DNA of 64,000 nucleotides from contig OZ220696.1 in assembly GCA_965116495.1 (NCBI GenBank), forward strand, positions 1,075,493 through 1,139,492, written 5' to 3'. The position numbers were made by a program, and so were the translations under genes. The notes beneath the pieces were generated by a model. The model did no database searches. It saw only the letters and a program-made list of their open reading frames with translations, and was not told the DNA's origin. Positions 3,400-64,000 of the stretch are shown here, in pieces (within the stretch, counting starts at the first letter, position 1; each line of letters opens with the position of its first letter). This DNA is from Gammaproteobacteria bacterium. Lineage in GTDB: Bacteria > Pseudomonadota > Gammaproteobacteria > Eutrophobiales > Eutrophobiaceae.

Positions 3400-3425
3400 C
3401 TGCCTGTTATCAGGCAGTTTTTATT
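3400..3425 (+). terminator. Rho-independent terminator after csp
   Basis: CTGCCTG-TTAT-CAGGCAG stem followed by a T-run. Confidence 0.75.
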
Positions 3426-3474
3426 ACACTACAACCATCCAGGCTTCTGGATTAGGGATAGAACCTTGAAAAGA

Positions 3475-3732: not shown

Positions 3733-3766
3733 CCAATATCGGTTGGTCACTCCCTTTACTTGATCC

Positions 3767-4423
3767 ATGAACATTGAGTTGATCAGTTTTGATCTGTGCC
3801 CGTTTGTGCAACGCTCGGTCATTACCTTGCTGGAAAAGGACATCCCCTTCAAGCGCACCAATATAGACCTGGCCAACAAGCCTGGCTGGTTTTTGCAGAT
3901 CTCGCCCCTGGGGAAAGTACCCGTACTGAAAATAGACGGCAACATCCTGTTTGAATCGGCAGTCATCAACGAATACCTGGATGAAGTTACCCCCCCGTCC
4001 ATGCACCCGGAAGACCCACTGCAAAAGGCCGTAAACCGGGCCTGGATTGAATTCGGATCGGAATTATCCAACCTGTCATTCAGGATGGTGATTACGGAGG
4101 ATAAGGACATTGTGGAACAATCCCTGCAGGCCCTGAGGGATAAATTCGAATTTCTGAACAAAAACCTCAACGCCGCCCCTTTCTTTAACGGCGCGGATTT
4201 CTCGCTGATCGACGCGGCCTATGCGCCTGTCTTTATCCGTATAGAATACCTGCTGAAGCAGGCGATCGCTGATGTGATCCCGCCGGGGTGCAGCCGGGTA
4301 CTGGCCTGGAGCAACGCCATCCTGGCGCGGCCGTCAGTCCGCGGCAGCATCATCGACCGCTTCACCGAACTGGCAACGCAAAGATTCAAGAAACGGGGCG
4401 GTATCCTGCTGCAAAACCTGTAA
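3767..4423 (+). CDS. Glutathione S-transferase family protein
   Basis: N-terminal thioredoxin-like CPF motif and GST-C-like remainder; 218 aa. Confidence 0.8.
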   Translation: MNIELISFDLCPFVQRSVITLLEKDIPFKRTNIDLANKPGWFLQISPLGKVPVLKIDGNILFESAVINEYLDEVTPPSMHPEDPLQKAVNRAWIEFGSELSNLSFRMVITEDKDIVEQSLQALRDKFEFLNKNLNAAPFFNGADFSLIDAAYAPVFIRIEYLLKQAIADVIPPGCSRVLAWSNAILARPSVRGSIIDRFTELATQRFKKRGGILLQNL

Positions 4424-9279: not shown

Positions 9280-10245
9280 TTGATAGCGGGCCGGCTGGTT
9301 TTCGCGCTGTTGCTGATAGCGGCGCCCGCTGCAGTTCTCGCCGCTGACCGGACCCTGATCCTCGCCGCGTGGAATATCGAACACCTGGCGGCTGAAGACG
9401 GCAAGGGCTGCCGGCCGCGGGATGCTGCCGAATACGAGGCGATCGGGCAATACCTGGACCGCGCTAATGCGGACATTATTGCATTCCAGGAGGTAGAGAA
9501 CCTGCGCGCGGCAGAGAGGGTGTTCCCTGCTTCGAAGTATGATGTTCATATCTCACAAAGACCGTCCCGGAAATTTCCGGAATGCTACGACATCACCAAC
9601 GACAGGTTGATGCAGCGCACGGGGTTCGCCGTTCGCAAGGACATTGCCAGGCGCCTGGGTCTGCGGGCGGTTCGACAACCCGATGTACGCGAACTGCAGG
9701 GCACCCATGATTCCGGGCGCCGGGGCGTCCATCTTGTCCTGGAGCAGGTTGATGAAGGTAGCGCCGGGTCAATGCCGGCCGGGCCCCCATTGCACCTGCT
9801 TTCCATACACCTGAAATCAAGATGTACGCACCAGGCCATAACGGGCAAAAAAACCAGGCCGGATTGCGTCGTACTGCATGGGCAGGTTGACGCATTATCC
9901 GCCTGGATCAATGCCCGTGCCCACCTGCAACAGGATTTTATTATCGCCGGCGATTTCAACAGGCAGCTTGACCAGTTAAGCGACGAAGTGTGGGTACGGC
10001 TGGAATCCGGCGGCAAGAGCGGACCATACGTTGACCTGGAGAAAGCCCTTCAAGGGGTTGAACATCCACAGCCTTATAACCGGAAATACCCCTACGCCAT
10101 CGATCACATCATATACAACCAGGCCGTGGACAGCCTGTTGCTTGAGACAGAGGCGTTTTTTGACGTCGGGGCGGGCAGCTATTCGGACCACCTGCCTGTT
10201 TTTGCCACCTTTGATTTATCGGGCCCCGACGGTGGTATGAACTGA
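9280..10245 (+). CDS. Endonuclease/exonuclease/phosphatase (EEP) family protein, secreted
   Basis: Signal-like N-terminus, then LILAAWNIEHL...IIAFQEV... and a C-terminal SDHLPV, which fits the EEP fold. Start is TTG. Confidence 0.75.
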   Translation: MIAGRLVFALLLIAAPAAVLAADRTLILAAWNIEHLAAEDGKGCRPRDAAEYEAIGQYLDRANADIIAFQEVENLRAAERVFPASKYDVHISQRPSRKFPECYDITNDRLMQRTGFAVRKDIARRLGLRAVRQPDVRELQGTHDSGRRGVHLVLEQVDEGSAGSMPAGPPLHLLSIHLKSRCTHQAITGKKTRPDCVVLHGQVDALSAWINARAHLQQDFIIAGDFNRQLDQLSDEVWVRLESGGKSGPYVDLEKALQGVEHPQPYNRKYPYAIDHIIYNQAVDSLLLETEAFFDVGAGSYSDHLPVFATFDLSGPDGGMN

Positions 10246-10257
10246 AGCAGGCTATTC

Positions 10258-10330
10258 GGGGTCAGAGTAAAAATACCTGGTAGTACGGTAACACAATCTA
10301 CCGGGTTGACCGTATTTTTACTCTGACCCC
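10258..10330. promoter_or_regulatory. Perfect 19-bp inverted repeat (GGGGTCAGAGTAAAAATAC / GTATTTTTACTCTGACCCC) enclosing a 35-nt loop with an inner hairpin, between the EEP gene and sdhC
   Basis: Direct reading of the sequence; no T-run follows the hairpin. Confidence 0.7.
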
Positions 10331-10394
10331 AAGTATCAGGTATCAAAGAATAGTACGGTCTCGTATAATACGCCTTTTTCCGAGTGGGTAATTA

Positions 10395-10775
10395 ATGACG
10401 AACTCGCAAACTCCACTGTCGCCTTTTTTGCAGTACAGGCCGCAGTTGACATCGATGCTGTCCATCTCGCACCGCATCACGGGAGTGTTCCTGTGCGCCG
10501 GGGCGGTGTTGTTGAGTTGCTGGCTGGTGTCGGTTGCCGCGGGGGCGGAGGTATATTCCACGGTCAACCAGCATGTCACTGCCTGGTACGGTCAGGTTGT
10601 CGTTATCGGCTTTGTGTTCTCACTCTACTACCACTTGTGCAACGGCATCCGGCACCTGTTCTGGGATATGGGTATGGGGCTGGAAATCACAACCACCTAT
10701 CGTAGCGGCTATGCGGTGCTGATTACCACGATATTACTGACGATCATGACCTTCAGTGCCGGGAGTATCCCGTGA
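10395..10775 (+). CDS. sdhC: Succinate dehydrogenase cytochrome b556 subunit
   Basis: RPLSPFLQYRPQLTSMLSISHRITG matches the SdhC signature. Confidence 0.9.
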   Translation: MTNSQTPLSPFLQYRPQLTSMLSISHRITGVFLCAGAVLLSCWLVSVAAGAEVYSTVNQHVTAWYGQVVVIGFVFSLYYHLCNGIRHLFWDMGMGLEITTTYRSGYAVLITTILLTIMTFSAGSIP

Positions 10776-11143
10776 TCAGACGGCTCCTGTTTCCCCGGGC
10801 CGGAAGTACCGGAGAAAATATCCGGCGCTGGTGGTACCAGCGGCTTTCCGCGGTTGCCCTGCTGCCACTCTCGTTGTGGTTCATCTATGACTTGTCCGCG
10901 CTGGCGTCACTGGAATATACCGTGGTGCGGGATTGGCTGGCAACGCCGTCCAGCGTTGTCCTGTTCATCCTGCTCATTCCCACCCTGTTTTATCACGCCC
11001 AGTCCGGCATGCAGGAGGTCATCGAAGACTACATTGCAAGTGAGCAGCAAAAGATGGCGGCTGTATTCGTGGTGAAGTTTTTGGCAATGCTGTGCGCACT
11101 CGCTTCCATGCTGGCCGTAACGGCAATCCACCTGGGCCTGTGA
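10772..11143 (+). CDS. sdhD: Succinate dehydrogenase hydrophobic membrane anchor subunit
   Basis: 123-aa membrane protein between sdhC and sdhA; GTG start overlapping the sdhC stop. Confidence 0.8.
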
Positions 11144-11145
11144 TA

Positions 11146-12938
11146 ATGAGCGCAGCCTACCAGTTCATTCAGCATGAATACGATATTGTCGTGGTAGGCG
11201 CCGGTGGCGCCGGGTTGCGCGCCACCTTCGGCATGGCCGAGAAAGAGCTGAAAACGGCTTGCATCACCAAGGTCTTTCCCACCCGCAGCCACACCGTTGC
11301 GGCCCAGGGCGGCATGAGCGCGGCCCTGGGCACATGGGTGAAGACGACTGGCGCTGGCACATGTACGATACCGTCAAGGGGTCGGACTGGCTGGGTGACC
11401 AGGATGCCATTGAATATATGTGCAAGGAGGCTGCTGCTGCCGTGATCGAACTGGAACATTACGGCGTCCCCTTCTCGCGTACCACGGACGGCAAGATTTA
11501 CCAGCGTCCTTTCGGCGGCATGACGACCAACTTCGGTGAAGGCACGGCGCAGCGTACCTGCGCCGCCGCCGACCGCACCGGTCACGCCATCCTGCATACC
11601 CTGTACCAGCAGTCCCTGAAGCATAACGCCGAGTTTTTCGTCGAATATTTTGCCATCGACCTGATCATGGACGATGAAGGCGTGTGTCGGGGTGTCCTGG
11701 CCTGGGACCTGGAGAAGGGCGACCTGCACTGCTTTCGCGCCCACACCGTGGTCCTGGCTACGGGGGGGTATGGACGCGCCTATTTCTCCTGTACCTCCGC
11801 CCATACCTGCACCGGTGACGGCAATGCCATGATACTGCGCGCCGGCCTGCCTTTGCAGGACATGGAATTCGTCCAATTCCATCCTACCGGCATTTACGGC
11901 GCCGGGGTGCTGATTACCGAAGGAGTGCGCGGCGAGGGTGGCTACCTGACCAATTCGGAGGGTGAAAGATTCATGGAGCGTTACGCCCCCAATGCCAAAG
12001 ACCTGGCCTCCCGGGACGTGGTCAGCCGCTCCATGACCATGGAAATCCGGGAGGGGCGCGGGATTGGCCCGGAACGGGACCACCTCCACCTGCACCTGGA
12101 ACACCTGGGACCGGATGTGATCAACGAACGCCTGCCCGGGATCGCGGAGTCGGCCCACATTTTCGCCGGAGTGGACGTTTCCAGGGCACCCATTCCCGTC
12201 CTGCCTACGGTGCATTACAACATGGGTGGGATCCCGACCAACTACCACGGACAGATGGTCACGTTGAAGGACGGCAATCCCGACAGTATCGCCCCCGGCC
12301 TCATGGCCATCGGGGAAGCGGCCTGCGTATCGGTCCACGGCGCCAATCGTCTCGGCTCAAACAGCCTGCTGGACCTCATCGTGTTCGGCCGCGCCGCGGC
12401 CCTGTGTGCCGCCCGCGAAGTCAAACCCGGCGCTCCCCACAAACCCCTGGGCGCCGCGACGACAGAGCAGTCCCTGGCGCGCTTCGACCGCCTTCGTTAT
12501 GCCGGCGGCGGTATGCGTACTGCCGAGATCAGGAACAACATGCAGCGAACCATGCAGACCAACGCCGCGGTCTTTCGCAGCGGTGAGATCCTGGCGGAAG
12601 GTGTCGAAAAAATGGATGCTATTTACCATTCGTTTAACAATGTCAGCACGGCTGATCGTTCCCTGGTCTGGAATACCGACCTGGTCGAGACCCTGGAACT
12701 GGAAAACCTGTTACAGTGCGCGCAGGTAAGCATCCGCTCCGCCGCAAACCGCAGGGAGAGCCGCGGCGCCCATGCCCGGGAGGATTACCCGGAGCGGGAT
12801 GATGATAATTGGATGAAACATACCTTATCGTGGCTGGACCCCGATTCGGGCAGGGTGGATTTCGACTACCGGCCGGTACACCTGTATACCCTGACGGATG
12901 AGGTGGACGCAATCCCACCGAAAAAGCGGGTATATTAA
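11146..12938 (+). CDS. sdhA: Succinate dehydrogenase flavoprotein subunit, with an apparent -1 frameshift near 11331-11335
   Basis: The N-terminus [26 protein letters not shown]...[13 protein letters not shown] is in one frame. The remainder, [19 protein letters not shown]... to the end, is in the +2 frame (ORF 11259..12938). Confidence 0.85.
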
Positions 12939-23738: not shown

Positions 23739-25091
23739 ATGAGTGAATACGACTATGATTTGTTTGTGATCGGCGCCGGGTCCGGCGGCGTACGCGCTGC
23801 GCGCATGGCAGGCGGGTTCGGCGCCCGGGTCGCCATCGCCGAAGACCGTTACCTGGGCGGCACCTGCGTCAATGTCGGCTGTATCCCGAAAAAGCTGTTT
23901 GTGTATGCCTCACATTTTGCCGAAGATTTTCATGATGCGGCGGGTTATGGCTGGCATGTCGCCGGACCTGTTTTTAAATGGGATGAGCTTCTACATAATA
24001 AAAATAAAGAAATCAGTAGATTAAATAGTATATATAAGAATTTACTGGAACGTAACGGAGTGCGCGTGTTTGACGGCAGGGCCGAACTTGGCGGACCTAA
24101 TACCGTTCGTATCAACGGCGAGAGCGTCAGCGCGCAGCGGATACTGGTGGCAACGGGTGGTTGGCCGCATATCCCGGACATCCCCGGCAAAGAATACATT
24201 ATCTCATCCAACGAAGCTTTTTTTGTTGAGTCCTTACCAGCCAGTGTGGTGATCGTGGGCGGCGGCTATATCGCGGTCGAATTTGCCGGCATCTTTCACG
24301 GCCTTGGCGTGGACACTACCCTGGTATATCGCGGCGACCTGTTCCTGCGGGGATTCGACGGGGAGATGCGCGGGTTTCTTGCAGAACAGATGCGTCAGAA
24401 AGGAATCAATCTGCTCTTCAACACCCGGATAGATAGCATAGACAGGCAAAACGGCTGCTACCTGGTGAACTCCCCCGATACCGGGACTATAACAACTGAC
24501 CTGGTCATGTATGCCACCGGACGGCGGCCCAACACGAACGGTCTGGGGCTGGAAACGGCCGGGGTGCAACTCAACGATAAAGGCGCCATAGTGGTCGATG
24601 TCGAATACCGCAGTTCGACCCCTTCCATTTACGCCATCGGCGATGTAACCGACCGGATGAACCTGACCCCCGTCGCCACAGCAGAGGGAACGGCACTGGC
24701 CAACAACCTCTATAACAACCAGTCAAGACGCGTCGATTACCGCGCTATCCCCACCTGCATATTCAGCCAGCCCAACCTGGGCACCGTGGGCCTCACCGAG
24801 GAACAGGCCCGGCAGGAATATACAAACGTCGAAATCTACAAGTCCAGGTTCACCAACCTGAAACACACCTTGACCGGCAACAGCGAAAAGACATTGATGA
24901 AGATCATCGTCGACAAGGACACCGACAAGGTCCTTGGCGTACACATGGTCGGCGCAGACGCTGGCGAGATTATCCAGGGCATAGGTATCGCCCTCAAGGC
25001 CGGCGCCACCAAAGCGACATTCGACGCCACCATCGGTATTCATCCGACCGTAGCGGAAGAGTTTGTTACGATGCGCGAACCTGCGGCATAG
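23739..25091 (+). CDS. gor: Glutathione-disulfide reductase
   Basis: [13 protein letters not shown] redox-active disulfide and C-terminal HPTVAEE dimer-interface motif; 450 aa. Confidence 0.85.
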
Positions 25092-25235
25092 AACATATAC
25101 AGGTTAGAATCCCTGACGGCCAATCAAATACCCCCTGTTCTACCGTTCCAGTTGTCCCTTATCGCAACTGCCGGTGCGCATTTCTTTCCGATCCATTGCC
25201 CTTGTATGCTTTATGCAGGATGCGTCATCTGGGGA

Positions 25236-26423: not shown

Positions 26424-28039
26424 AGTCTGTCGGACTTGGGCGCTGCGATTATCTTTGCGGACCACTTTTCAGGTCTTTTTGTCGCGGCAAGGCGCACGTG
26501 CATGTTGCCTGAACCTATACATGTACATTATGGGGATGTACAGACCTCACCAGGCGCCTGTCCTGACCGGGTAAACACCCACTGCCCCCTGCATCAGGCC
26601 AGCTGCATGTTATGCAGGCGTTTACAGTTGTAGGCCAGGGCCAGTAACTGCCACTCACCGGTCACCTTCTCATGGCCGCGCAGGAGAAACTGCCGGAACC
26701 CCAGGGCCTGCTTCATGATACCGAACACCGGCTCCACGGTCTGCTGCCGCAACCGGTAGCTGGCCCGGTTGTCCGCCTGTGATAACTTCTCTTGCATCGC
26801 CACCAGCCAGGGCGCTTTCGCCGGCTTGGGCTTGGCCGCCTGCGCCGGGTCCGGCAACGGGCGGAAGTCATGCCGCCGGCGCCGGTCCTCCGTCCCCACC
26901 GCCACCAGCACGTCTATCTCCCGACCGGTCAGCGCAGCCACTTCTGTCTCCGTCGCATAGCCGTTGTCCGCCAACACCTGGGCAGGGGTCCCCAACGCCG
27001 CCGGCACCGAGTCAATGTCAGCGACCAATTCGTTGCGGTCGCTGGCGCATTGGCTGACCCGCGTCCCCAGCACCAACTGGCTGCCGTCCGCATCCACCAC
27101 CGCCTGCGCATTGTACGCCTGCCGGTACTCACTGCGTTTGTTCTTGCGCATCAGGGAACTGTCCGCATCCGTCAGGTTCACCTGGGTGTCCTCCGCCGGG
27201 GTGTCTTCCGGCGGCTTGATAGGGTGCCCCTTGGCCCGGCCCCGACGCTTCTCACGCGCCGCCACCTTGCGCTCGTACTCGGCCTGGTCCGCCTGCGCTT
27301 GCGCCTTGGCCTGGCGCTCCAGACGTGCGCAGGCCGCATCCAGTTGCGTCGCCAGCGCCTCCCGCCGCGCCAACGCCTTCGGCAACTGCTGCGGGTCCGC
27401 CGCGTCCTGGCTGTCCGCACGCTCCGCTTCGGCCAGCAAATCCTTGACCTCACCCCGCAACTGCTCGCGTAATTCCACCGCCCGGTCATAGCGGATACTG
27501 CGCCGCTTGCTCGCAGCCGCCTTCACCTTCGTCCCGTCCACACTCACCCGGCCCACCGTCAACAACTTCAATTCCTTCGCCAGCAATAACACCTCCACAA
27601 AACCCGCCTGTACCGCCTCAAGGTTCTCCCGCCGGAACTTGCAAATCGTGTCATGGTCCGGGTGCGTGTTCGCCGTCACGTAACGCACCCCGATATCCCG
27701 GTACGTCGCTCGCTCAATCCGGCGCGAGGAAAAAATACCGTTCGCATAACAATAAATCAGCAACGCCAGCATGATACGCGGGTGATACTGTGCCGACCCC
27801 GTGCCCCGGGTGTTCACCACAAACTGACTCAAAGGCACCCGTTCCACCGCTGCCACGACAAAATGCGCCAGGTCATCCTCGGGTAGCCACTCGCGTAAAT
27901 CCGGTGGTAACAGGTAGGGTTGGTTACGGTCACTTTGCACAAAGTTTTCCATCGAAGCAGCCTCTATCGAACAGCGTGTGGTATCATCAAATCGTGTCGT
28001 CTATTATACCTCTATCCCAGCCCTAAGTCCGACAGACTG
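26424..28039 (-). mobile_element. IS1182-family (IS5 superfamily) insertion sequence with ~20-bp imperfect terminal IRs and a CTAG target-site duplication
   Basis: IR-L is CAGTCTGTCGGACTTGGGC; IR-R is GCCCCTAAGTCCGACAGACTG. CTAG occurs at 26420-26423 and 28040-28043. Confidence 0.85.
26594..27952 (-). CDS. IS1182-family DDE transposase
   Basis: 452 aa with an N-terminal HTH region, a central Ala/Arg/Glu-rich coiled coil, and a C-terminal DDE domain (VLADNGYATE...). Confidence 0.85.
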   Translation of the reverse strand: MENFVQSDRNQPYLLPPDLREWLPEDDLAHFVVAAVERVPLSQFVVNTRGTGSAQYHPRIMLALLIYCYANGIFSSRRIERATYRDIGVRYVTANTHPDHDTICKFRRENLEAVQAGFVEVLLLAKELKLLTVGRVSVDGTKVKAAASKRRSIRYDRAVELREQLRGEVKDLLAEAERADSQDAADPQQLPKALARREALATQLDAACARLERQAKAQAQADQAEYERKVAAREKRRGRAKGHPIKPPEDTPAEDTQVNLTDADSSLMRKNKRSEYRQAYNAQAVVDADGSQLVLGTRVSQCASDRNELVADIDSVPAALGTPAQVLADNGYATETEVAALTGREIDVLVAVGTEDRRRRHDFRPLPDPAQAAKPKPAKAPWLVAMQEKLSQADNRASYRLRQQTVEPVFGIMKQALGFRQFLLRGHEKVTGEWQLLALAYNCKRLHNMQLA

Positions 28040-54227: not shown

Positions 54228-54280
54228 TCGCACACAGGGCGCCCCCCGGACGCCCAAATCCGCTCCTGGCAGATTTGTCA
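54228..54280. repeat. Third copy of the structured unit from the sdhB-sdhE spacer (GC hairpin plus AAATCCGCTCCTGGCAGATTT)
   Basis: Aligns to 13925-13998 and 14036-14110 with compensatory changes in stem 1. Confidence 0.75.
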
Positions 54281-54372
54281 TTATACATCAGCCCGGCTCT
54301 CTCAATAGGCCGCTTGTAACCACCGGATTTTTGTTGCTGTTGTCAGGCTGGCAGGACAACGGGAAGACTTAT

Positions 54373-54696
54373 TCAGAGACATTCTTCGGCGAACGATGTA
54401 CAGGTCCGCACGCACTTCTGGGATACTACATCCTCGGCAGGGCTGACCAGGACACACTCCTCACCCCACCGGGAACAAACGGTCATACAGCGGCTGTTTT
54501 CGCTATTTTCCTCAACCGCAGCAGGAAGTTGCAGGCTGGCAGGTTCGGCGCCGGATTGAACTTCGCTGTCTTCATAATCCAACGCGAGTATCAACGGAGC
54601 AGGAGTTGACTGCAACTCCAACGACGCTGCGTAAACGAACGAGGTGGCAATTACCAGGGCAGGTAGAAAAGGCATACAGACAACCCGTTTTTTCAT
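54373..54696 (-). CDS. Small secreted protein with duplicated C-x3-C-x6-C motif
   Basis: Signal peptide MKKRVVCMPFLPALVIATSFVYAAS, then CMTVCSRWGEEC...CVRTCTSFAEEC. Nothing in the sequence points to a known family. Confidence 0.45.
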   Translation of the reverse strand: MKKRVVCMPFLPALVIATSFVYAASLELQSTPAPLILALDYEDSEVQSGAEPASLQLPAAVEENSENSRCMTVCSRWGEECVLVSPAEDVVSQKCVRTCTSFAEECL

Positions 54697-54843
54697 AAGG
54701 CAATTATGACAATAATAGTATAGGACTGGCAAGAGAAAAAAAGTTCACCCCCCTGCGTTATTTTCCACCCGCTACACGCATAATACCCAAATCGCCAATT
54801 TTGCCCTAATATATATATACTACCTACACAATTTTCTTACATC

Positions 54844-55227
54844 ATGGACAACAGGCTATATTTTATTTTCGGCGACCTGATCTCAAATATCAGCGCAGGG
54901 GTCCTGCTCGCTCTCTCAGCCGCCTTGCTGGTCAGCACCGGTTGGAATATGTTCATCGCCATGGCCGTGATGATGCTGCTTGGCATGGTACTGGGCCTGT
55001 TCCTGTCCCTGGCACTGAGTATCCTGTTCGGGGCCATGGAAATCATGGTGCCGGTCATGCTGACCGGCATGTTCAGCGGCATGTTCAGCGGCATGTGGCT
55101 GGCAATGGCAGATGTGCGCATCCTGCAACTGGTCTACCTGGGAGCGGTCACCGGGTTTGCCGTGACCTGCATCATCTGGTCCGTCAACGTACGGCTACGC
55201 GGTATCCGGACAGAGGAAACCAGCTGA
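54844..55227 (+). CDS. Small polytopic membrane protein (about 4 TM, Met/Gly-rich MFSGMFSGMW repeat)
   Basis: Hydrophobic 127-aa ORF immediately upstream of, and overlapping, a methyltransferase gene. Confidence 0.45.
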   Translation: MDNRLYFIFGDLISNISAGVLLALSAALLVSTGWNMFIAMAVMMLLGMVLGLFLSLALSILFGAMEIMVPVMLTGMFSGMFSGMWLAMADVRILQLVYLGAVTGFAVTCIIWSVNVRLRGIRTEETS

Positions 55228-55229
55228 CA

Positions 55230-55847
55230 ATGGTCGACCTGGCCACACAAACCAAATGGGACAAGGCTGCCTCCAGCCTGGACCTGATGACCGGCTACGG
55301 CGAATTGAAACGCTGGCTCCCGTTCAAGACCCGGCTGTTCGGCCACATGGAACCGGGTAATATCCTATTCGCATCCCTGGGTACCGGACTGGATATTTCG
55401 GCATTCCCGCCAGGCATGTCGGTTACCGCTGTCGATATCAGTCCGGAAATGTTGAAACGGGCGCAACCTCGTGTCGAACAATACGAGGGAGAAATCAAGG
55501 CTGAACTCATGGATATCCATGAACTGGCGTACCCGGACAACCACTTCGACCAGGTATTTACATCCTGTACGTTCTGCTCGGTACCTGATCCTGTCAATGC
55601 GTTAAAAGCACTGAACCGCGTGTTGAAACCGGGTGGCAGGCTTTACATGTTCGAACATACCGGCAGCCGCTATTTCCCTTTCAAATACATGATGGATTTC
55701 ATGACGGTCATTACCAGCAAAATCGGCCCAGACATGAACAGGACCACCGTGGACAACGTCAAGGCAGCCGGATTTGCAGTCACGGAAGTGAACAACCTGT
55801 TCCTTGATGTTGTCAAAACCATACAAGCGATTAAACCACTCAATTGA
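55230..55847 (+). CDS. Class I SAM-dependent methyltransferase
   Basis: 205 aa with GTGLDIS motif I-like and VLKPGGRLYMFEH motif; start ATG 55230. Confidence 0.75.
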   Translation: MVDLATQTKWDKAASSLDLMTGYGELKRWLPFKTRLFGHMEPGNILFASLGTGLDISAFPPGMSVTAVDISPEMLKRAQPRVEQYEGEIKAELMDIHELAYPDNHFDQVFTSCTFCSVPDPVNALKALNRVLKPGGRLYMFEHTGSRYFPFKYMMDFMTVITSKIGPDMNRTTVDNVKAAGFAVTEVNNLFLDVVKTIQAIKPLN

Positions 55848-55877
55848 CCAGCCGAGAACCGAATTAACCGGATAACC

Positions 55878-57287
55878 ATGCGCCAGTTGCTTGCAGTTTT
55901 TGTTGTTATGTTGGCAGCGGGACTGCTTCATGGAGAGGCGCGCGACAAGGCAATACTGCTCAGTGTCAATGACGCCATCGGCCCGGCCATCGCGGATTAC
56001 ATCGAACGCGGCCTTGACAAGGCAAATGATGCCGGCGCGGAAATCGTCATCATTCAACTGGATACGCCGGGCGGCCTGGACCTGTCAATGCGCAGTATTA
56101 TCCAGGCCATCATCGCCTCTCCCGTGCCGGTCGCCATCCATGTAGCGCCTTCCGGCGCGCGTGCCGCCAGCGCCGGCACTTACATGCTGTATGCCACGCA
56201 TATTGCGGCCATGGCGCCGGGCACCAACCTGGGCGCCGCTACCCCCGTGCAGATGGGCGGCCTGCCCGGCATGGACCCGCCGGAAAAACCTGCGCCTCCC
56301 GGTGCGCCGGACGATAACGCCGGTACTGAAGAAGCGGACCAGGACGGGGCGGCGCCGGAAAACCCGCTGGCCAATGCAGATGCAATGACGAAAAAAATAG
56401 TAAACGATGCCGCGGCTTATATCCGCAGCCTGGCCGAAATGCGTGGGCGTAACGCGGACTGGGCGGAACAGGCCGTGCGGGAGGGCGTCAGCCTGTCCTC
56501 CGAGCAAGCCCTGGAAGCCGGCGTGATCGACATTATTGCCGGGGATACCGCTGACCTGCTGCAACAGGTGAACGGCAGAACGGTGTCCTTGCAGAGCGGA
56601 GAACGGACGCTGAACACCAGTGGCCTCATAGTGGAAGCCATTGAGCCTGACTGGCGCAACGAACTGCTGGCTATCATTACCAATCCGAATATCGCCTATA
56701 TCCTGATGCTGCTGGGAATTTACGGTTTGTTTTTCGAACTGGCCAATCCCGGATACGTCCTGCCCGGGGTCATCGGCGCTGTCTCGCTGTTGCTGGCACT
56801 GTACGCGCTGCAGGTCCTGCCGGTGAATTATGCCGGCCTGGGACTGATGTTCCTGGGGATTGCGCTCATTGTCGGTGAACTGTTCATGCCCAGTTTCGGC
56901 ATCCTGGGGATAGGCGGCATTGTTTCCTTTGTCCTGGGTTCCATCCTGCTGTTCGACCGGGACAGCGGCAATATTGCCGTGTCAATGCCCTTGATCATCG
57001 CGGTCTCCGTGTTGTCATCGGGTTTTTTCCTCATCGTGATCCGGTCCCTGTACGCCTCCAGGCTCCGTCCCGTGGTAACCGGCGCCGAAGAACTCATCGG
57101 CGCGATGGGCCAGATCGCGGCCGATTTCAGCGGTAAGGGCACCATTTATATCCATGGCGAACAATGGAACGTCCGCTCGGACACACCCATGCAGGGCGGG
57201 GACGATGCCCGCGTTATCGGCAGGGATGGCCTGATTTTGCAAGTTGAACCAGTAGCCCGTACTTCTCACCCGGAGGATTCTTCATGA
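55878..57287 (+). CDS. NfeD-family membrane-bound ClpP-class serine protease
   Basis: Signal peptide, ClpP-like domain (IIQLDTPGG...[19 protein letters not shown]), TM segments, and C-terminal OB-fold. Confidence 0.85.
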
Positions 57288-58039
57288 TGACTTATCTCTA
57301 CATACTCGTCGGCCTTGCCATCCTGTTGCCCATGTTCATCAAGATCCTGCGCGAGTACGAACGCGCAGTGGTCTTCACTTTCGGCCGGTTCACGTCGGTG
57401 AAAGGACCGGGGCTGATCATCATCATCCCGTTCGTGCAACAGCTTGAGCGGGTGGAACTGCGCACCATCGCCATGGACGTGCCGAGCCAGGACGTCATCT
57501 CCAGGGACAACGTGTCGGTCAAGGTCAACGCAGTGCTTTACTACCGGGTGATCGATCCGGAACGCGCCATCATCCAGGTGGAGAATTTCCATGAAGCCAC
57601 CAGCCAACTGGCGCAAACCACTTTGCGCGCGGTGCTGGGCAAACACGAACTGGACGACATGCTATCGCAGCGGGAACGGCTCAATAACGATATCCAGTCA
57701 GACCTGGACAAGCAGACCGATGCCTGGGGCATCAAGGTGGCCAACGTGGAGATCAAGCACGTCGACCTGGACGAGAGCATGATCCGGGCCATAGCCAGGC
57801 AGGCGGAGGCAGAACGCGAGCGGCGCGCCAAGATCATCCACGCCGAAGGCGAACTGCAGGCCTCCCAGAAACTGCTGGAAGCCGCCACGGTACTCGGCCA
57901 GAACAACAACAGCATGCAGTTGCGCTACCTGCAGACCCTGACCGAGATCGCCGGGGAGAAAAGCTCCACCATCGCCTTCCCCATCCCGATTGATTTCCTC
58001 AAATCATTCCAGTCGATTGGCAAGACAGATAGCGATTAA
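57284..58039 (+). CDS. SPFH/band-7 (stomatin-like) protein, operon partner of NfeD
   Basis: 251 aa SPFH domain, overlapping the nfeD stop. Confidence 0.85.
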
Positions 58040-58044
58040 AGAAC

Positions 58045-58102
58045 AATTTGGGACACCCGCAAATTTCGGAAAAGTAGCAATTTATGGGTGTCCTAAATTT
58101 GC
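58045..58102. terminator. Inverted pair of the AAATTTGGGACACCC / GGGTGTCCTAAATTT 22-mer forming a hairpin between convergent genes
   Basis: Direct reading of the sequence; a related single copy is at 15508-15527. Confidence 0.55.
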
Positions 58103-58123
58103 CCAACTGGATCCCGCCCCCGG

Positions 58124-59662
58124 TCAGGGCTGCATCCGGCCGGCGACGTGGGACGCCCAGGCCGCAATACTCAGCGAGGGCGGCACGCCGACCGGTTGCG
58201 GGAACACGGACGCATCCGCGATATAAAGGCCGGGGTGCCCGTGCACCCGGCCTTCACCATCGACCACGCCTGCTGCCGGGTCATCGCTGATGCGGCAACC
58301 GCCCAGCGCGTGGGCCGTGAAGACATTTTTGCCGTCAAACCTGACCGGGCGGCCCGATTGGGCAGCAAGCGATTCAAACGCATTGATGGTGGCGGCATAG
58401 CTGGGTGAACCGCTCATGGAAAACGAAAATTTCATGCGGCCCTTGTGCATCCGGATCTCGCCGTCGGCCGCATCCTGCGACATGGCCACCACGTCAAATG
58501 CCCGGCCGGCTTTTGCCCGTGCCCTGGCGTGGAGGAATCCGGGTACGGGAGGCGTATCCCCGCCGGCGAGAATGATATAGCAACTGTTCTCATGCCCGGC
58601 GATCTTGATGCGGCCGTGGACGGGCGGCCCCGCTACGGAATTGCGGGAACCATCCCCCGGGACCGGCCAGGAACCGATCAGGTCGCCGTTCACGCCAAAA
58701 CCTTTCCCCAGCCCCGGCAGTTCGCCAAGGCTGCCCGCCTGGCGTGACTGCAGCAACAGGTAGTTGGTATTCATGGTGCCGGCCGCCAGGACAACCCTGG
58801 GCGCGCTGAGTGTGAGATCTTCCTGTTTCTGCAGACCATGCACCAGCAGGCGGTAGCCCTTGTCCCGGTCACGGCAGATTTCCCGGACTTCGTGCAGCGG
58901 CTTTATCACCAGGCCTTTCTGCAGTGCGGGCAACAGGTAAAGCGCATCCACGGTCGATTTGGACCCGTCCGGGCTGCCGAACATGCCGTGATCCTTCTGG
59001 AAATCCATCGGCATACGCACAACGCCTTGCTCATCGGTTAGCGGTCCCGTGACACGCGCCGTCTCAGGGTAGAGGACGGCCATGGGCGGCTGCTCGCCGA
59101 CACCCAGCGGCGTGAAGTGGTACACGCCTTCCCAGGCGTGATCGGTATGGTTCGGCACGCGCCTGGCATCAGCCGGCTGGGTGCCCTTCAACTCTTTCCC
59201 TACCCGGTTGTAATGGGAAGCAAGAACCCCATCGTCCAGTCCGTCAGCACGATTATTCCAGAATCCTTTGGGGGGGCTCTCCAGCGTGGCGGCCCAGATG
59301 TGGCTGCCCCCACCCACACCGGACGTACAGACAGCTTTGACGCCCTGGCCGACCCACACATCCAGGAAACCGGTTTTGTTCAACCTGATCCCGGACTTCG
59401 GCCCAACCGGCAGGTGCAACGAGCGCAGCACGCTCGTCATGCCGCCGCTGCGGGGCAACGGCCGGGTGTCCGTGATACCGGCTTCCCGCACAGGCACCGT
59501 CTCGCGCCAGGGACCGCGCTCAAGCAGCAGTACCGACATCCCGGCATCCACCAGCCGCGCTGCGGCCACGGATCCGCCGAAGCCGCTGCCGATGACGATG
59601 ACGTCCGCATCGGCATGAAATTCCCTGTTATTTTCTGTCACCACCCGATCTCCGCGTTTCAT
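58124..59662 (-). CDS. GMC-family FAD-dependent oxidoreductase
   Basis: N-terminal DVIVIGSGFGGSVAA Rossmann motif; 512 aa; GMC-like C-terminal domain. Confidence 0.8.
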   Translation of the reverse strand: MKRGDRVVTENNREFHADADVIVIGSGFGGSVAAARLVDAGMSVLLLERGPWRETVPVREAGITDTRPLPRSGGMTSVLRSLHLPVGPKSGIRLNKTGFLDVWVGQGVKAVCTSGVGGGSHIWAATLESPPKGFWNNRADGLDDGVLASHYNRVGKELKGTQPADARRVPNHTDHAWEGVYHFTPLGVGEQPPMAVLYPETARVTGPLTDEQGVVRMPMDFQKDHGMFGSPDGSKSTVDALYLLPALQKGLVIKPLHEVREICRDRDKGYRLLVHGLQKQEDLTLSAPRVVLAAGTMNTNYLLLQSRQAGSLGELPGLGKGFGVNGDLIGSWPVPGDGSRNSVAGPPVHGRIKIAGHENSCYIILAGGDTPPVPGFLHARARAKAGRAFDVVAMSQDAADGEIRMHKGRMKFSFSMSGSPSYAATINAFESLAAQSGRPVRFDGKNVFTAHALGGCRISDDPAAGVVDGEGRVHGHPGLYIADASVFPQPVGVPPSLSIAAWASHVAGRMQP

Positions 59663-60549
59663 TACCTGTTCGCATAATGTAGAAAGTTCAATACATGTTC
59701 AAGCAAAATTCCCGGGATCTCCTCCGGGATGAAATGGCCCGACGGCAGTCCGGTCCCTTGCACGTCACCGGCCACTTTTTCCCATTCCTGCAACGGGTTA
59801 AACAACTTTCCTATAACACCTTCCGTGCCCCATAACACGAGCAGGGGGCAGGTTATCCTGTTTCCCGCAGCCCTGTCCTGTCGGTCATGCTCCAGGTCGA
59901 TACCGGCGCTGGCCCGGTAGTCTTCGCAATTCCCGGCAGCGGTACCGGGCAGTCTCAGGCAACGCAGGTATTCGGCAAATGCCTCGCGGGTAAACGAATT
60001 CTCTCCCGCACTGAGCCGGTATAACATGTTGCGCAGGTAGTTTTCCGGGTCTGCCGTAATCAGTGTTTCAGGCAACGGCGCCGGACGTATGAGGAAAAAC
60101 CAGTGCCAGTATGCCCTGGCGAATTCCTCCGTGGTCTGCTCATACATGGACAGGGTTGGGGCAATGTCCAGCAGGATCATCCGGTTGACGGTTTCAGGGT
60201 GATCGATCGCCAGCCTGTGAGAGACCCGCGCGCCCCGGTCATGTGCCAGGATGTCGAAGCGGTCAAAACCCAGGGAACTCATCAACCCAACCTGATCCCG
60301 CGCCATTTCGCGTTTTGAATACGGGTGGTTCTTTTCCGATGCAGGGGGCTTGTCGCTGTCGCCATAACCTCTCAGGTCCGCGGCAACCACCGTGAAATGT
60401 TCTGTGAGCTGTCCGGCGACCTTGTGCCACATGACATGGGTTTGCGGGTGTCCGTGAAGCAGCAACAGGGGCGGCCCCGCACCCCCGATACGGTAGTGAA
60501 TGTTAACACCGTTAACAGGTTGAGACGTCCGCTCGAAATGGGCAAACAT
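59662..60549 (-). CDS. Alpha/beta hydrolase (epoxide hydrolase / haloacetate dehalogenase-like)
   Basis: LLLLHGHPQTHVMW and DLRGYGDS motifs; 295 aa. Confidence 0.8.
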   Translation of the reverse strand: MFAHFERTSQPVNGVNIHYRIGGAGPPLLLLHGHPQTHVMWHKVAGQLTEHFTVVAADLRGYGDSDKPPASEKNHPYSKREMARDQVGLMSSLGFDRFDILAHDRGARVSHRLAIDHPETVNRMILLDIAPTLSMYEQTTEEFARAYWHWFFLIRPAPLPETLITADPENYLRNMLYRLSAGENSFTREAFAEYLRCLRLPGTAAGNCEDYRASAGIDLEHDRQDRAAGNRITCPLLVLWGTEGVIGKLFNPLQEWEKVAGDVQGTGLPSGHFIPEEIPGILLEHVLNFLHYANR

Positions 60550-60908
60550 GGTTTGGATTATTAATTTATGTGGGGTTGCCTGCTGTCATTGGGTTGACAA
60601 ATATTTATTTTAAAATTGACAATTAATTGACAAATCATCAGGTTGCACATATCAATAGGCCAGGGTTGCGCGGATGAGGTTTTCCGGGTGTTTAAAAACC
60701 AGTACCCGGAAATCTCCATAAAAGTAACGCATACGAACAGTGTTGTAAACGCAATGATACAACATGTAAAAGTACAATAAGCTACCGAACTCGCCTTGTC
60801 GCAAGCAGGCTGGAGAGGGATTTTGATGGGCCGTCAGGGATTCTGAATACGAATGTAAGTTACTGTTTTTTCTAACTTATTGAGAAATTATGCTTAATAT
60901 ATCCCACG

Positions 60909-61064
60909 CTATTTCCAACAATACCGTTGGGTATAGACAGGAACATACAGCTCGGCGATGGAAGTCAGTGCGGCCCAATCTGAGCGATAGCTCTCCTGAT
61001 GCTCAAGGACAAGGCGCACGGACAGTTCTTGGATCTCCAAGGGATAGCGTTTGTGATTGTTCAT
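60909..61064 (-). pseudogene. IS3-family transposase OrfA N-terminal (HTH) remnant, 51 codons
   Basis: Manual translation MNNHKRYPLEIQELSVRLVLEHQESYRSDWAALTSIAELY... resembles IS3/IS911 OrfA (RYSPEFKREAVRLVLEQGYS...) and then stops prematurely. Confidence 0.5.
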
Positions 61065-61131
61065 TACTCCATCCTCTCAAGAAATGGAGTCTCCGGCAAT
61101 TCCCGGGCGGTTTATGGGGCAGGTTGTCGGC

Positions 61132-61797
61132 TTAGATCAGCCCCTGTTCGGCCACGGACGTCACGGTCTTGTTCCCGAGGTGGTCCAGCACGCGCACGTC
61201 CACCAAGGCCAGTGCCTGGGTCAGCTTCAGCGTAATCTGCCGGTCGGCCTGGCTCGGTTCGGCGATGCCGGAGGGGTGGTTGTGCGAAAAGATGATGCCC
61301 GCCGCATTCAGCTGCAGGCAGCGCTTTACCACCTCGCGCGGGTACACGCTGGCGCCGTCGATGGTCCCGGTGAACAGAATCTCGTTACTGATGATGCGGT
61401 GGCGGTTGTCCAGGAACAGGCAGGCGAACACCTCGTGCTCGAAGCGGCACAACCAGGCCCTGAGGCAGTTCTTGGTCTTGTCCGGGTTGCTTAAGACCGG
61501 GCGGACGCGCAGTTCCGCCTCCAGGTAACGCCGGGACAACTCCAGGGCCGCTTCGAGTCGCGCCGTGAGGGTCTTGCCGAGGCTGCTGTCCCGGGCGTTG
61601 TCGATGAGGCCTCTTATGCCCTGGTATTTACTGAGCTGCCCCCGTATTTTGTCGAAAGACCGGGGCGATACGAAGAGGCTGATGAGTTCGGTATCACTCA
61701 AGCTGTGGGGACCGGCATGCCGCAGTTTGTCACTCGGTGAGAGTTCACCGCGCGTGCGCAGCGTGCAGGATACAGGTTGGAACAGGGGATATTGCAT
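61132..61797 (-). CDS. radC: RadC-like JAB/MPN domain protein
   Basis: EVFACLFLDNRHRIISNEILFTGTIDGASVYPREVVKRCLQLNAAGIIFSHNHPSGIAEPSQADRQIT contains the JAMM motif. GC ~60% within AT-rich flanks. Confidence 0.85.
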   Translation of the reverse strand: MQYPLFQPVSCTLRTRGELSPSDKLRHAGPHSLSDTELISLFVSPRSFDKIRGQLSKYQGIRGLIDNARDSSLGKTLTARLEAALELSRRYLEAELRVRPVLSNPDKTKNCLRAWLCRFEHEVFACLFLDNRHRIISNEILFTGTIDGASVYPREVVKRCLQLNAAGIIFSHNHPSGIAEPSQADRQITLKLTQALALVDVRVLDHLGNKTVTSVAEQGLI

Positions 61798-62515
61798 GGG
61801 AGTCTCTACTGTGGTTCAGTGACACCGGTGGTCACGGGCCGTTGCAAGGCGTAGCGTGATCAACCGGGCCGGGGTCTCTTGCTGGCACCGACTATGGAAT
61901 GCGTCACTGCCGCAGCGCCGGATGGATGAAATGCACTGTGTTGGCGTGTTATTTATTCATCAGGGAAAATCACACATCCGGCAGGACACATTCCTGAACT
62001 GTTTATGTTATTGGATAACCCAGAACCAGCTGCTGTCCGCCGCTGTGGGGGATGTAAGGTTTGGGCCGAGAGCACGTCCGCGGAGTAGACGTGCGTCTTG
62101 AGCACCAGGGTGGGATTGATGCGGTGTTGGTCAGGCTGGATGAATTGCTTAATGCCGAATGGGTCCAGTTGCATGTTGCAGGGGACATGCCAGCCGCGCT
62201 CCTGGCTAAGATGCAATTGCCCACCAGTTCATTAGCGTTGATGCAGCTTTTAGTGCCTCACGGACCTTCGTCTCATCAAATACCGGGGGTGTAATAGCAG
62301 GAATCGGAAGGCGAAAAGAAGCAGAGACCATGGTCTTTATTACGGTAATTTCGGCCAATTCATTTGTTACATAGCGGACAAATCTATTTGTTGACAACAG
62401 CTCTACATGCTCAAATCGTTAGTGTAATAACAGGCCGGTTCGGAATCTGTTACAGGTGCATCGTGCGACCTCATTCCGCATAACCTGCAACGATGTTTGG
62501 TTATGGCCGATTCAG

Positions 62516-63361
62516 CTACGAAATCAGCTTGGTAACCGTCTGATTAAATTTGCGTCTGAACTTTGAAGCACGACCAGTAACTTGTTTGTCAGTGATTGAC
62601 TTAGGGACCACATCGCGCAGTTCCCCATTCGATGGTACGCGATTCAGTTTCTTGACACCATCAGCACACAAGGTAAACACAGTATAACCTATCGGAGATT
62701 CGGGACGGGTTTGACATTCCTTGTTTTTTAATGCTTGCATAGCAACCTCCTTAGACACCCATTTTTCTGGTAGATTTCCACCGCGAGGCACGAATACTTC
62801 ACCCTTCGGTGCTTTGATAGTCGTCGTGTTAGTTATAGTAACTATATTTCTTCCCACAGTGATATCTCTGAATTCTTTTTGAGGTGGTTTCTGCTTCCAA
62901 CGCACACGGTAATTGTTGATGTCATCAGGTTGCAATTCGTTACATTCTTTCCACCTCTCCTCAAACCAATGCAAGATACCCTGCCCTTTCTTTGTTTCGA
63001 GAACGGTCTCCTCGTTATTTTTGAAGCCCCCCTCCGTTAGATTCGCGCTACCGACCCATGCAATTAATGATTTGCCCCGGAAGATGTAAACCTTTGGATG
63101 AAACAACATGCTGTCCCTTTCAGCAAAACGTAGTTCTCCGATATTAGCCAACCGCTCCAGAGCATGAGGTTCAGTAGCATTTCCAAAGGTGCCAACCATA
63201 GCGCGAATACGTTTCGAATGATCTTTTTTCCACCTTTCAAGAAGTTGCAAGGCAGTCCCCGAGGTGGTCCAGGCGACGGCGATGTCAATCTGATCAGTAT
63301 GCTTCAGGTTGTCCTGAAATCTTTCCAGTAGCTTTTTCGTCGTCAGGAACATAAAGGTCAA
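62516..63361 (-). CDS. PLD-family (single HKD motif) nuclease-like protein
   Basis: HPKVYIFRGKSLIAWVGSANLT matches HxK(x)nGSxN. 281 aa with an extra ~120-aa C-terminal region; low GC. Confidence 0.55.
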   Translation of the reverse strand: MTFMFLTTKKLLERFQDNLKHTDQIDIAVAWTTSGTALQLLERWKKDHSKRIRAMVGTFGNATEPHALERLANIGELRFAERDSMLFHPKVYIFRGKSLIAWVGSANLTEGGFKNNEETVLETKKGQGILHWFEERWKECNELQPDDINNYRVRWKQKPPQKEFRDITVGRNIVTITNTTTIKAPKGEVFVPRGGNLPEKWVSKEVAMQALKNKECQTRPESPIGYTVFTLCADGVKKLNRVPSNGELRDVVPKSITDKQVTGRASKFRRKFNQTVTKLIS

Positions 63362-63550
63362 GTGTGTTAATAATCATCTTTATAAATAAAACGATGCTAG
63401 GCGCATATTGTAAACTTGAGGCTCATTTATTCACGTTTTCTCGACCCACTGTAGTTCTGCTGACACCGAAATGCTCCACGGCTTCCACCATAGTGTGCAC
63501 TGTGCAACCTGGCTCCATTTAGTTCTCTCAGAGACACGATTAAAACTTCA

Positions 63551-63967
63551 TCAATTACAGAGCCGGCCCCATATCATCTGCACATTTGCTCCTTTCTCGT
63601 CGTTTAGCCTGTCAATTTGCCTTCGTGCTTCCTGCTGGGCCCAATCCGCCCAAGCTGACCATGGAGGCAAAAAGAACCATCCTCCTGTTTTATCCCCCAC
63701 GGCCGTATAACATTCTCTGGTAACTGGCAGAGCGGTTAACAAACAGACAAGCGCTGCCCGTTTTTCGTGATCGTCTTCCCGTTCAAATTCTGCTTGCCAT
63801 TCTGTTTTCTCTCGCCTGCTAAGGCATTCTATCCGATGCACGATTTTTTTTTCAATCGCCCTGTCATAAAGCCAGTCAAATTTCTCGTTCCGTTTGATTT
63901 TCGGCATTGGATTATAAGTATCCTCACTCAGACATACACCCAGATAACCATTGGGAAAAGCTTCCAC
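63551..63967 (-). CDS. Hypothetical protein, N-terminally truncated by the window end
   Basis: The listed start is GTG and there is no in-frame stop between 63968 and 64000, so the ORF continues upstream out of the window. No recognisable family. Confidence 0.4.
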   Translation of the reverse strand: MEAFPNGYLGVCLSEDTYNPMPKIKRNEKFDWLYDRAIEKKIVHRIECLSRREKTEWQAEFEREDDHEKRAALVCLLTALPVTRECYTAVGDKTGGWFFLPPWSAWADWAQQEARRQIDRLNDEKGANVQMIWGRLCN

Positions 63968-64000
63968 GATTGCACTGTCAGGCCGGATTTGAGGGTAAGC

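Follow-up and report, generated by a model that had tools for sequence, protein, structure and literature searches.

A probable tRNA-Lys(CTT) island end with independent cargo modules, among them a PLD-superfamily nuclease gene, in a gammaproteobacterial genome

At one end of a 64,000-nucleotide stretch of gammaproteobacterial DNA (contig OZ220696.1, positions 1,075,493 to 1,139,492, assembly GCA_965116495.1; hereafter the window, meaning the whole stretch) lie a gene for a nuclease of the phospholipase D (PLD) superfamily, a radC paralogue, a remnant of an IS3-family insertion sequence (IS) and the truncated end of a DUF429-related gene. We interpret positions 60844-64000 as the attR-proximal end of a genomic island of about 10 kb, associated with tRNA-Lys(CTT) and a P4-type integrase and loaded with independent cargo modules, and we consider the chance that this interpretation is correct to be roughly three in four. 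An initial annotation of the window had drawn the region as a low-GC island; every feature that it listed was recovered in its place, and that vague outline has now been resolved into an attachment site, module boundaries and a history for each module. The co-location of the PLD, RadC and DUF429-like genes does not mean that they form a shared system.

The tRNA-Lys repeat and the sister island

The boundary of the island emerges from comparison with a sister genome (ENA ERZ21861969, a 4.62-Mb contig, comprising our comparison loci L031 and L032), which was reached through a member of the PLD protein cluster. Window and sister are colinear and 91-95% identical in the aligned DNA, and their correspondence falls into four segments:

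54276-60843: L031 19270-12704, 91% identity
60822-61112: L031 11556-11266, 90% identity
61113-62088: no counterpart in L031
62089-63998: L031 11263-9355, 95.5% identity

At the end of the first of these segments lies the 17-mer GAATCCCTGACGGCCCA (60827-60843), which is identical to the last 17 nt of tRNA-Lys and occurs in exact form only once in the window, where 0.03 occurrences would be expected by chance. The same 17-mer forms the 3' end of the tRNA-Lys gene adjoining the integrase both in the sister (L032 3251-3267) and in locus L011, and a further copy closes the sister island at its distal end (L032 12552-12568). Because the tRNA-Lys end recurs at that position in the sister, we take 60827-60843 to be attR, and the island therefore starts at 60844 and not at 60550, where the initial annotation had set its edge; the att-like direct repeat for which it had proposed a search is this 17-nt sequence. 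The low-GC DNA at 60550-60826 had likewise been assigned to the island and placed downstream of an alpha/beta hydrolase gene. It is instead core intergenic DNA and, given the minus-strand orientation of the hydrolase gene, lies upstream of it.

The gene order of the sister locus runs from cysS through tRNA-Pro/Arg/His/Lys(CTT), a P4-type integrase (domains Arm-DNA-bind_3, Phage_int_M and Phage_integrase), AbiEii and small open reading frames (ORFs), including one that is MobC/NikA-like, and continues with PIN-like, DUF429-like and PLD genes, the IS3 stub, the att site, the hydrolase, a GMC oxidoreductase, Band_7 and NfeD. The last four genes, from the hydrolase to NfeD, form a block common to window and sister. 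Beyond the point that matches window position 64000 the sister island reaches approximately 7 kb further, to the P4-type integrase beside tRNA-Lys, and by inference from this DNA the window's own island would likewise continue for about 7 kb past 64000. The earlier suggestion that the region is mobile-element DNA running past the window end is thus borne out by what the sister carries there. Related islands differ in cargo: L011 occupies the same cysS/tRNA-Lys site with an integrase 94.6% identical and holds other cargo, including a radC unit, and the sister island has no radC and possesses an extra 1.17-kb segment. This segment is enclosed by a second, mismatched att copy (L032 12552-13742), contains a 288-aa ORF with no family match, and is missing from the window; it looks like the remnant of a tandem island or of a second, miniature one.

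These observations fit a history in which a P4-type tyrosine integrase would have inserted an island of about 10 kb into the 3' end of tRNA-Lys(CTT), site-specific recombination duplicating the 17-nt core and so leaving attR at 60827-60843. The cargo visible in the window would then consist of mutually independent modules, selfish or accessory in nature, and not of one system. The features of the region are as follows:

59662-60549, minus strand: alpha/beta hydrolase gene (Abhydrolase_1, 1e-27)
60550-60826: core intergenic DNA, GC 0.40
60594-60633, minus strand: TTGACAA triplet (TTGTCAA on the hydrolase sense strand), -45 to -84 from the hydrolase ATG
60827-60843, minus strand: attR core GAATCCCTGACGGCCCA, exact match to the tRNA-Lys(CTT) 3' end; right-hand boundary of the island
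60844-61112: island segment, GC 0.45
60844-60950: island-end spacer from attR to the IS3 remnant, colinear with the sister genome
60909-61064, minus strand: 51-codon ORF (phrog_9928, 1e-9)
60951-61112, minus strand: IS3-family remnant comprising a terminal inverted repeat, the 5' untranslated region and the first 38 OrfA codons; remainder of the IS deleted
61113-62131: radC unit, GC 0.60-0.62, well above its surroundings (counterparts in L003-L011, at about 9570-11650 in each)
61132-61797, minus strand: island RadC paralogue with JAB/JAMM domain, 221 aa (PF04002, 9e-38; TIGR00608, 151 bits, above cutoff)
61798-62131, minus strand: conserved 5' leader of the radC unit, with an ~80-nt block near-invariant among 10 copies
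62089-64000: segment including the PLD cassette, GC 0.45-0.49 (cassette 0.45)
62132-62452: spacer with no supported gene (a 63-aa ORF at 62206-62397 has no family match)
62453-62477: remnant of the terminal inverted repeat (TIR) of a palindromic element resembling a miniature inverted-repeat transposable element (MITE), in the downstream PLD flank; identical to the L002 copy at 20 of 25 nt, as read from the sequence
62516-63352, minus strand: single-HxK PLD-superfamily nuclease gene, 278 aa from ATG (281 aa from an upstream TTG; PLDc_2, 4e-9; RE_NgoFVII, 6e-7)
63382-63524: degenerate palindromic element of ~125-140 nt with TIR GGGGTCAGGTCGCAnAATGCACACT, upstream of PLD; 90% identical to L001 958-1102
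63551-64000, minus strand: 3' 149 codons of a 225-aa DUF429-related gene, frame open to 64000

Every gene across 59662-64000 is carried on the minus strand. Core genes have a GC content of 0.55-0.65, and the remainder of the window averages 0.55. A promoter and terminator scan gave counts at or below shuffle expectation, and in the sister locus no gene is called between PLD (L031 10001-10837) and the 51-codon IS3-remnant ORF (L031 11314-11469).

The TTGACAA triplet had been counted among the island features. The triplet itself is real: the plus strand carries the motif at 60594, 60616 and 60627, first 22 and then 11 bp apart, and 2000 dinucleotide-preserving shuffles of the local sequence never placed three copies of any 7-mer within 45 bp. 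Its membership of the island did not hold up, as it lies outside the island in conserved core DNA covered by the 91% homology block (54276-60843), and the sister (L032) preserves all three motifs ahead of its orthologous hydrolase gene, with variation in the spacer between them. The TTGTCAA array probably serves the hydrolase/GMC-oxidoreductase operon as an operator or promoter, and the repeats would accordingly be a control region of the neighbouring core genes. At 60567-60600 the proximal TTGTCAA and a downstream TGACA form an inverted repeat (TTGTCAAcccaaTGACAg, hydrolase sense strand); the array therefore mixes direct and inverted half-sites.

Two further observations concern other parts of the window. 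An att-like sequence, GAATCCCTGACGGCCAA, with one mismatch to the tRNA-Lys 3' end, lies on the plus strand at 25107-25123, directly after a pyridine-nucleotide disulphide oxidoreductase gene (23739-25091) and 1.5 kb from an IS5/IS1182-type transposase gene (26594-27952). About 12 nt of its flank resemble the attR flank, and it may be what another integration or a rearrangement left behind. A further low-GC stretch (0.45 against the 0.55 average) is found at the window's other end, at 2001-4000.

The PLD nuclease and its cassette

The PLD protein is the mildly unusual member of this cargo. Each chain has one HxK...GSAN motif; the N-terminal ~165 aa form the PLD domain, and residues 170-278 constitute a lineage-specific C-terminal region of about 110 aa. 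AlphaFold2 models residues 1-165 with a predicted local distance difference test score (pLDDT) above 90 and residues 171-278 below 50, and H85, K87, S102, N104, E115 and E119 are invariant in 45 homologues. Foldseek places SauUSI first (2e-10), followed by NgoAVII, NucT, Zucchini and Nuc at about 1e-6, with lipid enzymes ranked lower than the nucleases; a PDB profile search also returned SauUSI (2e-8), and the best matches overall were SauUSI, NgoAVII, NucT, Zucchini, Nuc and BfiI. The protein thus has both the HxK(x)n GSxN pattern and the PLD alpha/beta fold, and it belongs to the nuclease clade that includes Nuc, NucT, Zuc, BfiI, NgoAVII and the N-terminal domain of SauUSI. The earlier assignment as a single-HKD nuclease and not a lipid enzyme was confirmed by these matches; the grouping with cardiolipin synthase that would have spoken against it was not observed. 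Single-HKD PLD enzymes such as Nuc and BfiI dimerise into one active site. By analogy with these two, the HxK domain of the window protein would dimerise in the same way and cut DNA independently of metal ions, and the 110-aa C-terminal region would most likely be the target-sensing part, as in modular PLD restriction and END nucleases.

The family is small, with 48 homologues among 5.8 billion proteins. Homologues above 85% identity share the full 278 aa; the others share only the first ~170 aa and possess two other types of C-terminal domain, in proteins of ~366 aa and ~400 aa, of which the ~400-aa relatives carry a glycosylase-like all-alpha domain. Pfam and PDB profile searches returned nothing for any of the C-terminal domain types. 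The ratio of nonsynonymous to synonymous substitution (dN/dS), calculated against three relatives, is 0.13-0.18 in the N-terminal part and 0.20-0.41 in the C-terminal part, and both halves are therefore under purifying selection. The reading that fits best makes the window PLD a sister to the END-type nucleases whose C-terminal region has been exchanged for an uncharacterised one, and hence a candidate for studying how sensor domains are exchanged on a common nuclease.

Each context examined gives the PLD gene different neighbours, and none of these is a conserved partner. PLD is found without RadC or a DUF429-like gene in L001, L002 and L036, and its neighbours in L001 and L002 are unrelated to those in the window; a divergent neighbour of ~270 aa in both loci was considered as a conserved partner and discarded, as the two neighbours are unrelated to each other. 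One PLD relative sits among PIN/Phd and TacAT toxin-antitoxin (TA) genes, and another adjoins an AAA_15/AAA_21 ATPase. No methyltransferase adjoins the PLD gene in the window, L001, L002, L031, L033, L034 or L036, and it is this that leads us to regard the protein as most likely a solitary, restriction-like nuclease, acting in a modification-dependent or otherwise foreign-DNA-directed manner; its defence function is inferred. In L034 (4161-7188) a relative of the ~400-aa END-like form (P0019) stands alone between dsrM-like and dsrK-like genes of a sulfur oxidiser dsr operon, in which a Uma2-family endonuclease gene also lies between dsrC and dsrM; these are solitary nuclease genes within a conserved operon.

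At the DNA level the PLD gene forms a 1.07-kb cassette, for which homology (92% to L001, 87% to L002) spans only 62456/62476 to 63524; near the downstream flank it ends at 62456 with L002 and at 62476 with L001. Over 62476-63524 the two loci match the window at 86-92%. Inverted copies of the 125-140-nt palindromic element stand on either side of the gene in L001 (958-1102 and 2019-2153), partial copies flank it at both ends in L002, and the sister has a degenerate upstream copy, as does the window. The downstream copy in L001 folds with z = -7.4; the window copy (63382-63524) does not fold (z = +1.4). The combination of bracketing repeats with unrelated neighbours marks the PLD gene as a cassette that has travelled from one context to another, by a mechanism that presumably involves the repeats; no transposase was identified for them. 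The repeat is rare, being present at PLD flanks and at one other site in 744 kb. In L015 (19163-19242), two inverted 25-nt TIR copies lie ~30 nt apart with no PLD gene nearby, and the repeat therefore exists independently of the cassette. A 31-aa mini-ORF within the window copy (63423-63518), which had the appearance of a helix-turn-helix gene, was rejected as part of the palindromic repeat.

To our knowledge, cassette mobilisation by bracketing palindromic repeats is undescribed for defence nucleases. A fuller proposal, namely that the PLD gene encodes a new single-gene restriction or defence nuclease of the END/SauUSI clade, that its C-terminal 110 aa are a new sensor of DNA or its modification, and that the cassette travels between defence hot spots bracketed by inverted palindromic repeats, is tentative, and we think it rather improbable in its entirety. 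The same cassette might instead be a selfish, homing-like or cassette-borne nuclease that spreads independently of any role in defence, moved by the palindromic repeats or by its own cutting. Consistent with this are the inverted copies in L001 and the partial ones in L002, L031 and the window, the occurrence of the gene in four different contexts at 86-97% identity, and the solitary relative between dsrM and dsrK. We nonetheless consider it unlikely, given the lack of an identified transposase, the rarity of the repeat, the placement of relatives among TA and defence genes in the manner of defence genes, and the experimentally demonstrated defensive activity of related END nucleases (PMC12191111).

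The other cargo modules and competing explanations

The IS3 fragment that the initial annotation had recognised is genuine. Residues 1-38 of the 51-codon ORF are 74% identical (tblastn) to OrfA of an intact IS3-family element in L007 (11043-12265), which encodes OrfA (103 aa) and OrfB (300 aa), the latter being among four neighbourhood ORFs that match rve, rve_3 and HTH_21; the 51-codon ORF also matches phrog_9928 (1e-9). At the DNA level the remnant shares 84% identity with IS ends in L003, L006 and L007. Only one inverted repeat and 38 OrfA codons survive in about 160 bp, so that the stub is a remnant incapable of transposition. The same stub is present in the sister genome and therefore predates the split between the two.

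The radC unit has a longer history. Elsewhere the unit is a repeat of about 2 kb composed of a leader of ~430 nt, radC, a 155-aa ORF with no family match (ORF155) and a tail. A genome scan found 8 copies, 87-90% identical in amino acids, in the related chromosome OZ242265.1 of a metagenome-assembled genome (MAG), and further copies in other MAGs; the 8 copies in this 4.5-Mb chromosome have diverged to 80-89% DNA identity. For at least four radC copies, that of L011 among them, a P4-type integrase beside a tRNA gene is found no more than a few kb away, and radC units are therefore regular cargo of this island family. A separate radC group, 69% identical to the window type and syntenic across five MAGs (L012-L016), is the housekeeping radC. 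The window RadC had itself been a candidate for the housekeeping gene, with its full-length TIGR00608 match and host-like GC; the 8 paralogues in one genome and the separate syntenic copy rule this out. Its JAMM motif is intact (EHEV...HNHPSGIAEPSQAD, pattern E...HxHx7Sx2D in the alignment). The UPF0758 N-terminal family PF20582 reaches only E = 0.012, and the island RadC is near-identical to the lineage's housekeeping RadC from about residue 95 onwards and divergent over the first ~90 residues. Judged from this alignment, the island RadC is a chimera derived from the lineage's own housekeeping radC, which would explain its host-like GC. The GC-rich radC had been thought mosaic in origin; a 976-bp insert or indel relative to the sister supports that view, and a foreign source is contradicted by the JAB half, near-identical as it is to the lineage's own radC.

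That indel (61113-62088) is wholly absent from the sister, which retains the first ~45 nt of the leader joined directly to the IS3 inverted repeat. The simplest history would be a deletion of the unit in the sister. In the window the IS3 end abuts radC 20 bp past its stop codon, and ORF155, present in other copies, has therefore been lost. The unit, consisting of the leader and a JAB-type RadC taken from the lineage's own radC, would have been truncated by an IS3 insertion that removed ORF155, and of the IS itself nothing beyond the inverted repeat and the beginning of OrfA would then have remained. The ~80-nt block in the leader is much more conserved than the coding sequence, and its opposite strand holds a short conserved ORF, MK[R/C]TVLACYLFIR.... 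The leader has no Rfam match at the gathering threshold or at E <= 5, including to the radC and STAXI motifs, and RNAalifold gave no covariation support for a structure.

The last ORF, cut by the window edge, is 100% identical to the C-terminal 149 aa of P0172 (225 aa), a member of a family with 311 homologues, a few of which carry PF04250 (DUF429) and some of which are labelled by JGI as 'predicted nuclease with RNAse H fold'. Neither the window fragment nor the sister orthologue matches any model in Pfam or PADLOC. The product is a putative nuclease, predicted to be of an RNase H-fold family, and its gene would be a further module of the island. The orthologue adjoins PLD in the sister as well, an adjacency found only in this island lineage. 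A 4.7-kb metagenome contig (L035, LXNI01007346.1), found with a 25-mer from the window end, carries at 1233-2498 a PIN-like gene and the N-terminal half of a DUF429-like gene, 94-95% identical, with its window counterpart at 63909-63998. It diverges in the middle of the DUF429-like gene, and a recombination breakpoint therefore lies inside that gene.

Several points weigh against the picture of a P4-type island with a functional nuclease among its cargo. The integrase and attL of the window's own genome are deduced solely from the 95%-identical DNA of the sister, no empty attB site was found, and a relaxase is absent, so that mobilisability is uncertain. The window's palindromic repeat is degenerate and the cassette probably no longer mobile. 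The C-terminal region of the PLD protein has no homologue beyond its own cluster among 1.84 billion representatives, spurious repeat proteins apart; the sensor role suggested for it would be pure analogy, and the region is modelled at pLDDT <50. A phage database yielded no PLD homologue, and plasmids gave matches only at the level of the N-terminal domain, none of them full-length. The search for a defence system that the initial annotation had recommended, made with PADLOC-DB 2.0, matched no system, and PLD drew only weak PLD-domain matches (REase_II, ZacB, PbeA and DrmC, E 6e-6 to 4e-2); of the remaining island proteins, RadC and the DUF429-like one included, only AbiEii in the sister locus had a match there. 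Finally, alone among the aligned copies, the window RadC lacks two residues of the conserved DHLVVGD motif and may be inactive.

This last deletion is also one of the signs that would be expected if the region were decaying junk, an island remnant whose genes no longer function, to which the truncated IS3, the missing ORF155, the degenerate MITE-like repeat, the spacers devoid of genes and a DUF429-like gene that encodes 225 aa here and 272 aa in the sister could be added. However, the PLD ORF is intact and gives dN/dS values of 0.13-0.41 in comparisons with three relatives, the JAMM motif of RadC is preserved and the ORFs are uninterrupted, and we therefore judge wholesale decay to be quite unlikely. 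A different possibility, raised by the initial annotation, is that PLD, RadC and the DUF429-like protein constitute one multi-gene defence or anti-defence system running past the window. In its favour, all three genes sit side by side in the window in one orientation, the sister also has PLD next to the DUF429-like gene, and PLD and JAB proteins recur in defence contexts generally. Against this, the sister keeps PLD with no radC, and none lies between its PLD and DUF429-like genes; PLD in L001, L002 and L036 has unrelated neighbours; radC units occur in 9 loci that have neither PLD nor a DUF429-like gene; L035 carries half of a DUF429-like gene in another context; and PADLOC recognises no such system. 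A single system is highly improbable, and the claim is not upheld. That PLD is a lipid-metabolism enzyme of the cardiolipin or phosphatidylserine synthase type in an ordinary core neighbourhood can be dismissed: a generic PLDc_2 match and the lipid enzymes lower in the Foldseek list are outweighed by a single HKD in only 278 aa, by top sequence and structure matches that are all nucleases, by the match to the N-terminal domain of the NgoFVII restriction enzyme and by a location inside an att-bounded island.

Comparison with known systems

The closest characterised relatives of the PLD protein are the END nucleases (END-PaCF1), single-gene enzymes of experimentally established defensive function, in which a PLD N-terminal domain is joined to an inactivated EndoIII/Ogg-like (HhH-GPD) C-terminal sensor (PMC12191111). 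Compared with END, SauUSI, BfiI and NgoAVII (PMC12191111; PMC7913695; PDB 7CLG, 2C1L, 4RCT), the window HxK PLD domain is closest to SauUSI. As with END nucleases, the gene is solitary, with no linked methyltransferase and no conserved partner in the contexts examined, the family swaps C-terminal domains, and the glycosylase-like all-alpha C-terminal domain of the ~400-aa relatives resembles the END sensor. The window protein differs in that its C-terminal region has no recognisable inactivated EndoIII, B3 pseudobarrel, EVE or helicase domain (there is neither a confident fold nor a homologue), so that the END pairing of PLD domain and inactivated EndoIII/Ogg-like sensor is not found in it, and in that its gene lies in a cassette flanked by palindromic repeats. 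Type IIS restriction-modification enzymes (BfiI/NgoAVII) differ in having an adjacent cognate methyltransferase. Enzymes of this type also end in a B3-like pseudobarrel that binds DNA; the window C-terminal domain, with pLDDT <50, has no sequence similarity beyond its own cluster. From SauUSI-type Type IV enzymes the window protein is set apart by its length of 278 aa and its PLD domain alone, with no helicase/ATPase and no DUF3427.

The IS3 stub resembles its family in an OrfA N-terminus and a terminal repeat homologous to an intact OrfA/OrfB (rve) element of a related genome, and departs from it in its ~160-bp length and in the loss of OrfB and the second end. The window RadC has the PF04002 domain with its JAMM motif, and unlike a housekeeping RadC, which is single-copy, at a conserved locus and endowed with a UPF0758 N-terminus, it belongs to a multi-copy type. 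Its leader can be set beside the radC RNA and STAXI motifs, which occur upstream of radC and anti-restriction genes in integrative and conjugative elements (Rfam; PMC5587801): both are strongly conserved non-coding leaders directly upstream of a mobile-element radC, and the window leader differs in having neither an Rfam match at E <= 5 nor covariation support.

The E. coli K-12 islands CP4-57, CP4-6 and CP4-44 carry the RadC paralogues YfjY, YkfG and YeeS. Variants of Salmonella SGI2 are likewise P4-integrase, tRNA-type islands with RadC paralogues (PMC3401170). Compared with these P4/CP4-type islands, the RadC here is full-length (221-223 aa) and, on alignment, a chimera with the JAB half of the host lineage; its partner is a 155-aa ORF and not a TA system of the CbtA/CbeA type, and the island is small, at about 10 kb. 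The likenesses are a tyrosine integrase beside a tRNA gene, direct repeats of the tRNA 3' end (an exact 17 nt at the distal boundary here), variable TA, restriction and RadC cargo, and the presence in one genome of several related islands that each carry a RadC copy. The radC unit, with 8 island-borne copies and a near-invariant leader, would be an example of an island recruiting a host gene. Neither this nor the PLD finding alters current concepts; set beside its P4- and CP4-type counterparts, the island is of an ordinary kind with one mildly unusual gene.

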